Of a stretch of DNA of 19,891 nucleotides, positions 7,215 through 12,726 are shown piece by piece. The DNA comes from a virus: UHGV virus genome UHGV-0140551; one strand, written 5' to 3'. How positions within the stretch are numbered: position 1 is the first letter of the stretch; each line of letters begins with the position of its first letter. The notes below the pieces were generated by a model that was given only the letters and a program-made list of their open reading frames with translations, searched no databases and had not been told where the DNA came from. The translations under genes were made by a program, and so were the position numbers.

Positions 7215-7220
7215 CAAACG

Positions 7221-7255
7221 CCGCCGGTGCTGAAACTTGCTTTCAGTGCTGGCGG
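7221..7255 (+). terminator. Stable hairpin immediately after the DinI-like stop codon (15-bp stem with G-U pairs, 5-nt loop); no clear U-tract
   Basis: CCGCCGGTGCTGAAA-cttgc-TTTCAGTGCTGGCGG. Could be a weak terminator, an RNA stability element or a processing site. Confidence 0.35.
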
Positions 7256-7347
7256 GGTTGAACAACGAGCTACGCGAGGCGTTAGCCGGTCATAGCGTCG
7301 CAAATACTTCAACCGTCTGCTGGTTAAATAATTCGAGGTTTTTGTAC

Positions 7348-7708: not shown

Positions 7709-7868
7709 ATGCCATTTTTCCGCGAATTTCCCGTTTTTTAGTCGTGCATGCATTAGGTGCATGGTTTTGCATGCGTCAGTCTTGCCCGTTCTGTCCGTGC
7801 GCCGCCAGAGCTAGCGCGGATCCAGAGTTGTCATGCAACTGCATTAAAACCGCCCCATAAAGCGGGCA

Positions 7869-7887
7869 GGCGTGGCGGGGAAAGCAT
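7869..7887. other. cos cohesive-end site (186-type)
   Basis: GGCGTGGCGGGGAAAGCAT matches, from memory, the 19-nt cohesive end of coliphage 186 and 17 of 19 positions of P2 cos (GGCGAGGCGGGGAAAGCAC). It lies between the replication gene and the portal remnant, as expected. Confidence 0.7.
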
Positions 7888-8106
7888 TGCGCGCCAGCAG
7901 TGATGCGTAATAATAAAAATTATCCTCTGAGCGCGTCGTGATGGCGCTGTCGTGGTCGCTGCTGGTTCGTTGGTGGTCGAGTGTGTTCGTGCGCGTGAGA
8001 CGCATCTGATGCGTGATGGTGGTGTGCATGGAAAAGCCACCAGGAGCAGCGGCTTTACAGGAGTGGCAGGATTCAAACTGCTAATTATGTTTCTACTATG
8101 ATTAAA

Positions 8107-9111
8107 CTAATTTACATGTATGTAGAGTTCACCGTCGCCAGACCAATCGGGACACTCTAAAACAAGCCCAAACTGCTTGAATATTTCATCAATGATTATT
8201 GTTATCTCCCGAAAATCACCAAAACCTGTAATGTGCTGGTCATTAAACTTCCCATAAAGATTCTGAAAAGCAATGCCTAATTCTGATAATTGATATCTTA
8301 TCTTTGAGTTGGATAGTGTAAGGGATAGCTTTGGATCGTATTCTTTAATATTGATGTTTAGAGAATGGACATAACCCATCGCATAAGCATAAGAGTTGAT
8401 GATTAGCCTGATACGTTTTTTTACTTCAAGATACATGTCATTCAGAGAAATATTACCGTACTTATAACCCCAGATGAGTTTTTCAATCTCGTCAGATACT
8501 TCATTTACAACAGTGTCAAGATTCTCTAAAAATAAATCGATAGTTTCTTGAGGGGCAGACCCCGAAGACATGTAATTAGCGAGATATTCAGACCATGCAC
8601 GCGTGGCTGAGATAAGAAGCGCGCTACCATACTCGTTGACTGTAAAGTTTTGGGCTAAGCATGTTAGTAAGTTTTTTTCATGTACGTGCACTAATTCATG
8701 GTGAATGCGATGGATGACTGCGAGGTATCCTTCTTCTTTCAGTTTTAAGAAGCTACCATCATTGAAAAGCTCAACAAAAAAATCAATCGATAGCACAAGG
8801 GTATATTCTTCACATAGCCCATCATTGCCAATTTTTGTTACTAACTGCCCGACGGCTGCGCCCTGTTTGCTATTGGTAAATGAACTAGGGGATTTGTGTT
8901 GGTAAGAGGATGTTACCTTTTGAAGAGCTTCACTGAAGTTATAGGAAACAATCACGCATTTTAATTTGGAGATATCAAGATTGAGATTTTTTGTTAAAGC
9001 TCGGATAGCTTCTAGTGTGAAATTACCGATATTATTTGCTTCTTGCTCAGTAGCGAAACCTTCGAGGGTTATTTTAAAATCAGTTTCCAAAATATTAATC
9101 TCCGCGCCCAT
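8107..9111 (-). CDS. AT-rich accessory protein with an HExxH (zinc-metallopeptidase-like) motif; candidate anti-phage or abortive-infection gene in the cos-portal hotspot
   Basis: 334-aa ORF of markedly lower GC than the flanking phage genes. It contains HRIHHELVHVHEKN (HELVH at residues 138-142), has no Walker A motif and no transmembrane segments, and sits where P2-like phages carry variable accessory genes. Confidence 0.7.
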   Translation of the reverse strand: MGAEINILETDFKITLEGFATEQEANNIGNFTLEAIRALTKNLNLDISKLKCVIVSYNFSEALQKVTSSYQHKSPSSFTNSKQGAAVGQLVTKIGNDGLCEEYTLVLSIDFFVELFNDGSFLKLKEEGYLAVIHRIHHELVHVHEKNLLTCLAQNFTVNEYGSALLISATRAWSEYLANYMSSGSAPQETIDLFLENLDTVVNEVSDEIEKLIWGYKYGNISLNDMYLEVKKRIRLIINSYAYAMGYVHSLNINIKEYDPKLSLTLSNSKIRYQLSELGIAFQNLYGKFNDQHITGFGDFREITIIIDEIFKQFGLVLECPDWSGDGELYIHVN

Positions 9112-9128
9112 TGTTTTGATATTCGATG

Positions 9129-9157
9129 CACTATAGCTTTCGCAGATTGCATCTTCA
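9129..9157 (-). promoter_or_regulatory. Candidate own promoter for the 334-aa gene: -35 TTGAAG, 17-bp spacer, -10 TATAGT (minus strand)
   Basis: Hexamers read on the minus strand in the 78-bp gap between the portal remnant and the gene. The predicted leader is short and lacks a strong SD. Confidence 0.35.
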
Positions 9158-9188
9158 ATAATGAGCGCAGAGATTGTGGCGGCCTAAG

Positions 9189-9722
9189 TTATTCTGGGTT
9201 GTCGAGGGTGTACTCTTTGAATCTGATGACCTCCATGCCGAGCCAGTCATTTACCTCCCTGAACCTGTCCTGTAGCGGCGACAGCTCGTTGCGCACAAAT
9301 ACCTTTGCCACCTTCTCAACATCACCGAGTGAACCGATATTCTCGGGCTTGCCGCCCATGAGCTGGAACGGTACGCGGTGCGCGTCCATCAGATCGGCGG
9401 CACTGGCCTTCTTGATGTTGAAAAAGTCATCCTTTGTGGCGACCTCGCTCAGTGGCACGATTTTGATGCCGTCCGGTTTTCCGCCGGGAGCGTAGAAAAA
9501 CAGGTTCTTAAAGTTGCCGAGCCCTTTTGAGTTGCGCATCGCCTCGCGCAGCGATTCGACGTCGGTCGCGCTCTGCGCCGGGTCAGTCACATACATGATG
9601 TAGCCTGCGTGCGCGCCGTTCTGATAATACTTGCGGCGGAACAGCGTCGCGGATTCATTCAGCCAAGCGGAATTGACCGTCCAGTCAGCCGAGATTGTGC
9701 CGTACCAAATTGACGCGACGCT
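9189..9722 (-). pseudogene. Portal protein (P2 gpQ-like), 3' fragment only
   Basis: The frame is open from 9722 down to the stop at 9189, with a portal-like C-terminal translation (…FFYAPGGKPDGIKIVPLSEVATKDDFFNIK…VFVRNELSPLQDRFREVNDWLGMEVIRFKEY…). The N-terminal half is absent; a stop lies at 9723-9725 and a J-like frame begins on the opposite strand. Confidence 0.6.
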
Positions 9723-10570: not shown

Positions 10571-11523
10571 CCGCAAAATATTTTGCCATTCTGACCAATC
10601 AGGGCGCGGCGCGGCTGGCGAACGCGGCGGCACTCGGTACCAAACTCAACCTGACGCAGATGGCCGTCGGTGATGCGAATGGTACGTTGCCGACCCCTGA
10701 CCCGGCGCAGACGAAGCTCATTAACCAGAAACGCATCGCGCCGCTGAACCTGCTGACCGTTGACCCGGCCAATACCAGTCAGATTATCGCGGAACAGATT
10801 ATTCCCGAGAATGAAGGTGGTTTCTGGATCCGCGAGATTGGTCTCTATGACGATGATGGTATTCTGATTGCCGTGGCGAACTGTCCGGAGACCTACAAGC
10901 CACAACTGCAGGAGGGAAGCGGTCGCACGCAGACCATTCGCATGATTCTGATTGTGTCGAACACATCGGCAATCACCCTGAAAATCGACCCGGCAGTCGT
11001 GCTGGCAACGCGCCAGTATGTCGACGACAAGATTATCGAGGTGAAAGGATATGCTGATAACCTGATGAAAAAACATGTTGAGGCCGCCAATCCACACAAG
11101 CAGTACCCGTTAATCGCTAATGCTCTGAAAGAAATGGTTGACGCGGGACTGGCCGGCGACGTTCTTAAAAACCTTGGTTTGGGAGAGGGAGCAAAATTAG
11201 GCGCAGCGGTGTGTGTGACCGGCTCTACAGGCTATATGACTATCCCGGCAATGGTCGCCGGGAAAGAACGGGTGATCATATTGCAGTGGTTTGGTGCTAC
11301 TACAACTGATTATGTGACACCAGTAACTGCGAATTTCCCTATTGCATTCCCAAATGAGTGCATGATTCCGTTATTTAGTGATGTATCAACTGGGGCAGTT
11401 GATTTGAGTTCTACAGCCGCATATAGCTTAGCGGTGGGCCGATCATACTATACGACGGTAACAAGAACTCAGATTACATGTGCTGGCTACGGTGGCTTTA
11501 GAGTTTTCGCGATTGGATGGTGA
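10567..11523 (+). CDS. Tail fibre protein (P2 gpH-like): constant N-terminal region fused to the currently expressed variable C-terminal segment
   Basis: N-terminus matches the conserved gpH start ([18 protein letters not shown]…[22 protein letters not shown]…[18 protein letters not shown]…). A recombination site lies inside the gene at 11162-11187. Confidence 0.85.
11162..11187. repeat. Invertase crossover site (hix/gix-like), left copy, inside the tail fibre gene
   Basis: TTCTTAAAAACCTTGGTTTGGGAGAG resembles hix/gix sites and is an imperfect inverted repeat of 12711-12736. Confidence 0.6.
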
Positions 11524-11948
11524 TTAATATGTTTTATTCTGCAAAAGAAAATGCGTTCTACGCTGATGAGCTAAAAAGTATTTATGAAAATGCAGGTAGC
11601 TGGCCTGACGATGCCGTTGAAGTAGACTATTCCGTATTCGTTGAGTTTGCCGGAGAATCACCTAACGGAAAATTACGCGCTCCTAATTCTGATGGTTTAC
11701 CTGAATGGATAGATATTCCCGAACCAACTGAAGAGGAAATTATTGCGTTGGCAGAAGCCGAAAAATCGCGACTGCGTGCTTCAGCTGACTCTGAAATAGA
11801 ATGGCGGCAGGACGCCGTTGATGCGGGGATCGCGACGGAAGAAGAAACTGTTTCATTAGCCGAATGGAAAAAATACCGGGTGCTGCTGATGCGAGTTGAT
11901 ACAGCAGACCCGGACTGGCCTACTCCTCCGGCGACTCAGGCCAGTTGA
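11517..11948 (+). CDS. Tail fibre assembly chaperone (gpG/U-like), paired with the current fibre tip
   Basis: 143-aa ORF with the typical motif [10 protein letters not shown]…WPDDAVEV…; an alternative start is the ATG at 11529. Its 3' end overlaps the convergent paralogue. Confidence 0.85.
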
Positions 11949-12351
11949 TATCTGGTGCGCTGGATATGTCCACAGATTCCAGCGCATCGAGATAATCCAG
12001 CCACTCGTTATACTGGGCCTTCTCGTCGTCTGTAAGTCGCCCCAGCGCAGCTTTACCCGGCCACTGCTTGCTGTTTATATACTCATTAGCCTGATCGATA
12101 CGATACTGTTTTTCAGCTTCAGCTGCTGCGATTTCCTCCTCATGGCTTAAAGGTGGAATGTCTACCCATGCCGGCATTCCATCCTCAGTAGCTCCACGAG
12201 TTTTACCCTCTGGTGGCATCCCCGAATATTCAGTGAATGTCTCATCTGAGACGGCTATGAGATCGTCAGGCCAGTTTCTACTCGCTTCATAAACATCTCT
12301 GAGCTCATCAGGGTAGAAAGCGTTATTTAATGCTGAATAAAAATAAGCCAT
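11920..12351 (-). CDS. Alternative tail fibre assembly chaperone (U'-like) in inverted orientation
   Basis: 143-aa paralogue ([22 protein letters not shown]…WPDDLIAV…) on the opposite strand, convergent with and overlapping the 11517-11948 gene by 29 nt. Confidence 0.8.
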
Positions 12352-12354
12352 TTA

Positions 12355-12726
12355 TTAATACCCCACAGCAAAATAGTTAAACCCGCCAGCGCCGATGGAT
12401 GATTCAGCGTTGGTTCCTGTCTGATAAGCGCGTAGCTGGAAATTAGTTCTCGTAAAATCCTGGGCGGTTAACGCAAAACCTTGACCTGTACCCCCAACAC
12501 TCTGGTCTGTTGCAACAACACATAGCGCCCTGGTTGGAAACGCAATCGGGAATGATACTGTTTCTGGGGATGTTCTCGTTATGGCTATTGCCCATTGAAG
12601 AATTAACCCGCCTGGCAGGTATTGATACCCCGAATCGGCTCGCTGATTACCAAATGAAGACATGTCCGGAATCTGTCCGGAACCAGTGCCAACATTTTTT
12701 TTTGCCGCATCTCCTAAACCAACCTT
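12355..12726 (-). CDS. Alternative tail fibre C-terminal segment (Sv'-like), lacking its own start; expressed only after inversion
   Basis: The frame is open from the recombination site at about 12726 to the stop at 12355. Its …KVGLGDAAKKNVGTGSGQIP… mirrors …[13 protein letters not shown]… at the left site, and its stop is followed by the chaperone start. Confidence 0.65.
   Translation of the reverse strand, partial: KVGLGDAAKKNVGTGSGQIPDMSSFGNQRADSGYQYLPGGLILQWAIAITRTSPETVSFPIAFPTRALCVVATDQSVGGTGQGFALTAQDFTRTNFQLRAYQTGTNAESSIGAGGFNYFAVGY

Follow-up and report, generated by a model that had tools for sequence, protein, structure and literature searches.

Closest described systems

Metalloprotease effectors are, to our knowledge, rare among characterized anti-phage systems, and Lit represents the classic single-gene case. 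Lit, the cell death peptidase of the cryptic prophage e14 (MEROPS U49, Pfam Peptidase_U49), remains latent until the Gol peptide of T4, bound to EF-Tu, triggers cleavage of EF-Tu and abortive infection. The DNA stretch analyzed here, UHGV virus genome UHGV-0140551 (19,891 nucleotides, hereafter the window), is a 186-like (Peduoviridae) prophage, which carries an AT-rich gene for a 334-aa protein (the cargo gene) between its cos site and the remnant of its portal gene. Going by sequence conservation and structural modeling, this protein is very probably a remote, unclassified gluzincin-type metallopeptidase with an intact and strongly conserved active site. Like Lit, it is a single-gene product of ∼300 aa on a defective E. 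coli prophage and is predicted to be a cytoplasmic HExxH metallopeptidase; it differs from Lit in matching neither Peptidase_U49 nor PADLOC. Homology to Lit was rejected, as BLASTP returned nothing and hhalign of the family profile gave a probability of 14%, confined to the 18-residue HExxH helix. By analogy with Lit, the protein may be a zinc protease giving lysogen immunity via phage-triggered or phage-directed proteolysis, a reading that we favor over the others and to which we assign an even chance.

P2 old and tin, which provide the second point of comparison, sit on the replication-gene side of cos. The interval between GpA (replication) and GpQ (portal) has been documented as the main defense hotspot in P2-like phages (PMC9122126; PMC13586616), in line with the initial annotation, which had described the region between the replication and portal genes as one that exchanges defense genes. 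The cargo gene shares with old, tin, and the GpA–GpQ systems (Rousset et al., 2022) the same hotspot, a fast replacement of cargo, and the organization as a single-gene module of foreign composition. However, the proteins are unrelated, and the window gene is located on the portal side of cos in the direction of the late operon.

Sequence features of the cargo gene

The cargo gene and its proposed functional sites are located as follows.

8107–9111, minus strand: cargo gene for the 334-aa zincin-like protein (mechanical open reading frame list, ATG start; supported by PHROG 11743 and AlphaFold2)
8686–8700, minus strand: codons of the HExxH motif (H138, E139, L, V, H142), the proposed two zinc ligands and catalytic base (sequence, conservation, helix 126–148)
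8575–8595, minus strand: codons of WSEYLAN (residues 173–179), with E175 as the proposed third zinc ligand (conservation, helix 160–185)
9088–9103, minus strand: probable start TTG (9090–9088) with the Shine-Dalgarno-like GGAG (9103–9100) (sequence, homologue N-termini, RefSeq, pLDDT)

The open reading frame (ORF) showed a GC content of 0.375 (0.36 at third codon positions, GC3), against 0.516 for the remaining window, while the portal remnant beside it showed a GC of 0.556 and a GC3 of 0.74. The AT-rich minus-strand ORF between cos (7869–7887) and the portal remnant was thus confirmed. The span of 8107–9188 originally assigned to it was upheld in part: 8107–9111 is coding, whereas bases 9112–9188 form a noncoding spacer of 77 nt reaching the portal stop codon (at 9189). 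The HExxH signature, placed earlier near residue 138, is present in a single copy at residues 138–142 (∼0.02 expected from the protein's own composition) within HHELVHVHE at residues 137–145; residues 134–147 translate as HRIHHELVHVHEKN. The reported absence of a Walker A motif, a helix-turn-helix (HTH), and a transmembrane segment also held. No Walker A motif was found by sequence check and no HTH family was matched in Pfam, and a transmembrane segment is unlikely because the Kyte-Doolittle maximum over 19 residues was only 1.19.

The real start is probably TTG at 9090, which would give a 327-aa product. This start is favored by the GGAG 9 nt upstream and by the N-termini of most homologues, which read M-E-x-D at this point. 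A 327-aa RefSeq call in one genome and a predicted local distance difference test score (pLDDT) below 50 at residues 1–7 point to the same start.

Protein family, fold, and active site

The profile and structure searches proposed earlier were carried out, and they placed the 334-aa protein outside the described families: scans of Pfam, NCBIfam, and PADLOC gave no meaningful match, neither the single protein nor the two family profiles retrieved a relevant PDB sequence, and no Foldseek match in PDB or BFVD reached E ≤ 0.001. The best viral match of Foldseek in BFVD was a 250-aa 'Peptidase' (E 9e-3). PHROG 11743, annotated as function not known, was matched end to end (E 2.8e-157), and the matches in PHROGs were limited to families of unknown function. 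PADLOC models include an AbiH profile. A resemblance to AbiH, raised in the initial annotation, was ruled out, as the scan of PADLOC-DB 2.0 at E values up to 10 returned 0 families.

By word-indexed search, 78 relatives with identities as low as 42% were retrieved; all named ones are labeled hypothetical, and they come from Enterobacterales, Shewanella, and Psychromonas. A second search of this kind added few further sequences. Residues H137, H138, E139, H142, E145, N147, and W173-S-E-Y-x-A-N179 were invariant in 33 of these relatives. With an exhaustive profile search, the family grew to 355 clusters (50% identity), the majority of them single-domain proteins of 305–340 aa. Conservation was evaluated in 73 members of this set, which share 17–50% identity (most 17–26%) with the window protein. 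E139 and H142 were kept in all 73, H138, E175, and A178 in 72 each, and W173 in 68. The HExxH motif is thus retained among the homologues.

Tertiary structure prediction with AlphaFold2 on the alignment gave a pLDDT of 90.7 and a predicted template modeling score (pTM) of 0.90. The model comprises an N-terminal β/α subdomain, the HExxH helix (126–148), the E175 helix (160–185), a helical C-terminal domain, and a terminal β-hairpin; the C-terminal helical domain spans residues 188–313 and is distinct from known gluzincins. As in zincins and gluzincins (clan MA), the HExxH motif lies on a predicted α-helix (126–148), the model places a candidate third-ligand Glu (E175) on the next downstream helix (160–185), and the catalytic domain is predicted to have a thermolysin-like fold. 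The WSEYLAN helix resembles the Glu-bearing helix of gluzincins, by comparison with the M1 motif. The metallopeptidase-type reading of the initial annotation is therefore supported by both the fold and the conservation of the motif, and zinc binding and peptidase activity of the window protein can be proposed with high confidence from the sequence and the model.

In comparison with thermolysin-like gluzincins of MEROPS MA(E), i.e., M1, M4, M9 collagenase, and M30, the window protein showed 9–13% identity and no PDB or Pfam sequence match. The spacing between H142 and E175 is 32 residues as against 18 in M1, the GxMEN motif is absent, and Peptidase_M1 in Pfam was not matched. The protein is not an M1 enzyme, since GxMEN is missing and the ligand spacing differs. 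The family is distinguished from gluzincins by its own signatures, HHELxHVH(D/E) and W-S-E-Y-x-A-N.

An HExxH metallopeptidase motif in a mobile element would also fit a regulatory protease resembling ImmA/IrrE or CapP, whose cleavage of a repressor would control the induction of the element or the expression of a neighboring system. A weak CapP match over the motif (E 0.005) was obtained for one distant relative, and an IrrE-like phage protein was among the weak structural matches in BFVD. We consider such a role very improbable. The CapP match is the sole one, the gene has no accompanying HTH repressor in the slot of the prophage, in the integron cassette, or in the majority of its other contexts, and the induction of phage 186 is already accounted for by Tum/DinI under LexA control (186 annotation). 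ImmA/IrrE (Peptidase_M78) itself was rejected, as M78 in Pfam was not matched and the gene has no adjoining HTH gene in the slot or the integron cassette.

A variable cargo slot between cos and portal

The slot and its borders were defined as follows.

7869–7887, plus strand: cos cohesive-end site, 19 nt, identical to bases 1–19 of phage 186, annotated as cos
8063–9175, no strand: AT-rich cargo insert of ∼1.1 kb between the portal stop codon and tW, with approximate limits against phage 186 (pairwise 186 alignments)
9189–9674, minus strand: portal 3′ remnant (186 W / P2 Q) (alignment to 186 W; blastn against the 1008S13 prophage)

The insert region has a GC of 0.376 (computed for 8046–9175) and holds one gene only. 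An intact 30.5-kb version of the prophage is present between yfiB and rplS in strain 1008S13 (locus L026). Compared to this prophage, the window has lost 9.9 kb, with the joint at 9674 corresponding to L026 11537/21471 (blastn). The deletion has left the 3′ third of portal joined to a fragment of a baseplate gene (junction region 9597–9700); lost in it are the genes for terminase, scaffold, capsid, and lysis, several tail genes, and the late promoter region that precedes terminase. With the terminase, capsid, and lysis genes missing, the prophage is defective or cryptic. The portal remnant is longer than its 135-aa ORF implies, as the homology runs on to 9674. The cargo ORF is intact at 563 bp from the deletion junction.

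The cargo protein is encoded in one of 50,697 phage records, that of vB_EcoM-613R3. Among the 38 phage records matching the region by DNA, 37 are without the cargo gene, and universal presence at the slot in 186-like phages was thereby ruled out; in phages 186, PSP3, SEN1, and EtG and in Yersinia and Salmonella relatives, the flanks match and the middle is absent. The gene was found in 26 of 5,426 complete E. coli genomes, in all cases on the chromosome and directly downstream of the portal gene, and these 26 are part of 253 E. coli genomes that match the region. This distribution bears out the earlier proposal of a horizontally acquired cargo in a variable slot. The comparison of the cos–portal slot across related prophages showed that, beside an identical portal protein (WP_000517961.1), the slot is either empty or occupied by one of two other genes.

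L027 2867–4084, opposite to the cargo gene, towards portal: 405-aa nSTAND1-domain NTPase in the same cos–portal slot of another E. coli prophage
L028 1865–2176, opposite to the cargo gene, towards portal: 103-aa DUF2188 protein in the same cos–portal slot of another E. coli prophage

The slot is within the GpA–GpQ hotspot, and the nSTAND1 NTPase alternates there with the zincin-like gene; the cargo gene is accordingly in a recognized hotspot and exchanges with a known type of defense gene. A DUF2188 gene was also observed near the Enterobacter homologue (L031).

The version of the protein in Salmonella serovars (90% identity, >1,000 contigs) and the Klebsiella version (80% identity) are encoded at the same place with the same 77-nt spacer. 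The ratio of nonsynonymous to synonymous substitution rates (dN/dS) in enterobacterial copies was 0.16–0.30 for the cargo gene versus ≤0.10 for the portal fragment, which indicates purifying selection; the cargo gene is functional and evolves faster than the adjoining structural gene.

Genomic contexts and domain fusions of homologues

Recognized defense genes were present within ∼8 kb of the homologue in 7 of 20 contexts outside P2-like prophages, and 8 of the 20 contained mobile-element markers. The contexts include the following.

Psychromonas: adjoins a type I restriction-modification (RM) system
Metagenomic contig: between a type III RM system and an adjoining HEPN_AbiV gene
Rhizobium: near an integrase, an nSTAND3 protein, and an SMC-like ATPase
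Colwellia: divergent from an adjoining TIR protein, with Shedu 5 kb away (E 1e-152)
Bacillus: AbiO/Nhi 3 kb away (E 7e-185)
Alteromonadaceae metagenome-assembled genome: near a DpdF-like helicase and an integrase
Paenibacillus plasmid: Pycsar 5.5 kb away
Pseudoalteromonas phenolica chromosome 2 (L015 9891–11140): single-gene integron cassette flanked by attC sites

The remaining contexts include several that are rich in mobile elements but ambiguous, and family members were also found on plasmids and in Firmicutes. Chromosomal integron cassettes have been reported to be rich in defense genes (bioRxiv 10.1101/2024.07.02.601686). The P. phenolica array is composed of a long run of attC-like repeats (TAACAA...GCGTTAG) between small same-strand ORFs and looks like a sedentary chromosomal integron. 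In Serratia fonticola (L023 5042–5614) and Enterobacter ludwigii (L031 3116–3685), the homologue has a divergent gene for a 190-aa serine recombinase (Resolvase) immediately upstream, and this pairing hints at another small mobile unit. A two-gene system was considered and rejected: the 1,211-aa apparent operon partner in Marinarcus is PutA, and the 813-aa Vibrio neighbor had no PDB or PADLOC match.

Some of these neighborhoods suggest a moron for host fitness or a toxin-type function unconnected with phage defense, i.e., an interbacterial or virulence protease or an addiction toxin stabilizing the element. The Serratia and Kosakonia homologues are located 2–3 kb from type VI secretion system (T6SS) Hcp/DUF4225 and Tlde1-domain genes, the Bradyrhizobium homologue is among NEL and Fic effector-type genes, and the Salmonella variant is very abundant (>1,000 contigs). 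T6SS genes, however, are near just 2 of ∼20 homologues, the protein contains no signal peptide, transmembrane segment, or secretion-associated Pfam domain, and the 1.1-kb module is devoid of a partner, immunity, or antitoxin gene, the integron cassette likewise being single-gene. This explanation is thus regarded as improbable.

A link to a known defense domain was provided by the representatives P0142 and P0204, in which an N-terminal DUF2971 is fused to a whole C-terminal zincin-like domain. The fused DUF2971 region matched the PADLOC candidate PDC-S31 (E 3e-38), and a DUF2971 gene was found 7 kb from the homologue on a Pseudomonas megaplasmid. DUF2971 is an ADP-ribosyltransferase-like domain akin to DarT and AbiGi (PMC12522546) and forms Aristaios, a validated lactococcal single-gene abortive-infection system (PMC11381338). 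The zincin family is tied to DUF2971, PDC-S31, and Aristaios by domain fusion, whereas the window protein itself lacks DUF2971. The zincin site of P0142 is degenerate (H138R, E175A), and the loss of H138 and E175 suggests a non-catalytic role of this domain, e.g., as a sensor.

Transcription setting of the cargo gene

Two candidate transcription signals were identified around the gene.

9130–9158, minus strand: sigma-70-like promoter candidate, TTGAAG (9158–9153), 17-nt spacer, TATAGT (9135–9130), inside the inserted module (consensus scan)
8033–8056, minus strand: intrinsic-terminator-like hairpin and U run downstream of the cargo gene (8056–8033) (terminator scan, RNA fold, tW positional homology)

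The promoter that the initial annotation had ascribed to the gene received mixed support. The site is present, and both hexamers are invariant across five copies from E. coli, Salmonella, Klebsiella, and Citrobacter (proteins 80–100% identical); on the other hand, it matches 9 of 12 consensus positions, and 5 promoter-like sites were found in the region as compared to 4.3 ± 2.2 in shuffled sequence. The promoter candidate alone is not significant, since the number of sites is no higher than in shuffled sequence. RNA folding of the terminator predicted a 9-bp stem followed by UUUU, and the hairpin is the diverged counterpart of the phage 186 terminator tW (annotated at 186 bases 164–187). No terminator or comparable hairpin was found in the 77-nt spacer between the portal and cargo genes. 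Rfam and tRNA scans of the window gave no match, and no RNA partner was detected.

Several observations weigh against a lysogen-expressed defense gene. The promoter candidate is weak and statistically indistinguishable from chance. The portal gene leads into the cargo gene with no intervening terminator, the tW-like terminator being placed only after the cargo gene, and from this placement the late packaging operon could read through into it. In two P2-like contigs from IMG/VR, L046 and L048, the zincin homologue is inside the late packaging operon, an embedding that would suit a lytic-cycle function at least as well as a defense expressed in the lysogen. PADLOC 2.0 has no model matching the window protein. 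The neighborhood link is qualitative only, as it is derived from a small sample (7 of 20) with no background rate, and several homologue contexts are housekeeping or uninformative, e.g., beside putA or sbcB.

The same arrangement raises the alternative of a lytic-cycle accessory protease, co-transcribed with the terminase–portal late operon and serving in counter-defense through the destruction of a host immune protein or in the exclusion of satellites or co-infecting phages during packaging. The cargo gene is codirectional with the portal gene and directly downstream of it. The gene order in L046 and L048 is terminase, portal, Ogr-like, and zincin homologue, and the portal, Ogr-like, and zincin genes overlap by 4 nt. 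The zincin homologue of these contigs is 51–56% identical to the window protein, and the portal protein is 33% identical; from these values, the placement downstream of portal recurs in a distant lineage. The absence of a terminator between portal and cargo and the operon embedding in L046 and L048, neither of which was noted in the initial annotation, would fit a late-lytic or counter-defense role. Nevertheless, this role appears unlikely, though less so than a function in host fitness or as a toxin. Going by the 37 of 38 matching records that are without it, 186-like phages can dispense with the gene, and tblastn against the 50,697 phage records revealed no virulent phage carriers. The family is mostly found outside phages (integron cassette, defense islands, plasmids, Firmicutes), and other cargo in the same slot runs in the opposite direction. 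The ORF has stayed intact although the late promoter region of the window is deleted; the deletion may be recent.

The Ogr-like gene codes for a 108-aa Cys-rich protein (L046 4639–4965, L048 4624–4950), and it overlaps both the portal and zincin genes by 4 nt. By eye only, the protein resembles the Ogr/Delta late activators (CPECG...CxC...C).

Proposed mode of action and literature status

An anti-phage role of the cargo gene is suggested with moderate confidence by the genomic contexts and one domain fusion. The protein would be a soluble cytoplasmic zinc metallopeptidase of a gluzincin-like family not described before, in which H138, H142, and E175 would bind zinc and E139 would act as the catalytic base. 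The gene is mobile as a self-contained single-gene module in the cos–portal slot of 186-like prophages, made up of the ORF with its ribosome-binding site, a promoter-like element ahead of it, and a terminator behind it. Two modes can be envisaged: a phage product may activate the latent protease, leading to cleavage of an essential host factor following the logic of Lit, or the protease may cleave a phage protein directly. The abortive-infection mode, the trigger, and the substrate are suggested with low confidence.

More broadly, the window protein might found a widely distributed family of single-protein immune proteases, with at least 355 clusters (50% identity) spread over Proteobacteria and Firmicutes. 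Detection of a phage product and proteolysis would both fall to a single zincin domain, and the minimal cassette would spread via prophage slots, integrons, and defense islands; some lineages would be catalytically dead and retained for sensing on behalf of a fused ADP-ribosyltransferase effector. This wider proposal is tentative and somewhat less likely to be correct than its opposite. As a further possibility, coupling to the packaging operon may allow a helper phage to turn the protease on satellites or co-infecting phages.

The E. coli protein WP_001622301 is given in Table S5 of Rousset et al. (2022) among the P2 loci as 'hypothetical' (PMC9122126), and it is absent from the other supplementary files of that study that were examined, including Table S2 of tested systems. 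The protein is also absent from the examined supplements of PMC13092281 and PMC9519451. No characterization or anti-phage test was found in literature searches covering the accessions, PDC-S31, zincin/HExxH with defense, and DefensePredictor. The family is uncharacterized, with a known fold and at a known kind of locus, and is not a categorical surprise.

If the gene does function in defense, it would add a protease family unrelated to Lit, with a far wider distribution and the same minimal one-gene design, and would provide a function for a protein present on >1,000 Salmonella contigs and in 26 complete E. coli genomes. The DUF2971 fusion and the degenerate-site variant would then offer a natural handle on a protease fold reused as a sensor. 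A lytic role would instead mean counter-defense or anti-satellite cargo, of which few examples are known from the P2 hotspot. With a gene of ∼1 kb and four obvious point mutants, the hypothesis can be tested cheaply.

Other features of the prophage

Bases 1–55 of the window are identical to sequence beyond the right end of the 1008S13 prophage (L026 32008–32062) and not to its left flank, so that the first bases of the window may belong to an attR-like or permuted junction; bases 43–55 overlap both matches and may be the att core. On the minus strand at 1211–1549, a 112-aa DUF2511 gene, a further small accessory gene, separates the integrase gene from that of the CI repressor; this position has been reported to be a minor hotspot of P2.

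A 69-bp stretch (7217–7285) aligns twice in the intact prophage (L026 8675–9148), where the repeat pair flanks ∼340 bp with a small hypothetical gene; these ∼340 bp are missing from the window. Since the stretch aligns at both flanks, a repeat-mediated deletion on the replication-gene side of cos is suggested. On this side of cos in phage 186, orf97 (L007 2105–2836) is annotated as blocking 186 infection from a plasmid. The window has different small ORFs at the orf97 position, and in a Salmonella prophage (L029) the corresponding place is taken by a 243-aa ORF.

The minus strand has an ORF at 7844–8029 whose counterpart in related genomes is annotated by RefSeq as a 61-aa hypothetical protein (WP_000557532.1). 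This ORF is probably not a real gene, as it spans cos and a region homologous to the gene-free bases 1–163 of phage 186. The segment at 11187–12699 (tail-fibre C-terminus, assembly, inversion segment) had no match to the 1008S13 prophage, to which the window is elsewhere 99.8–100% identical, and looks like a host-range cassette swap.

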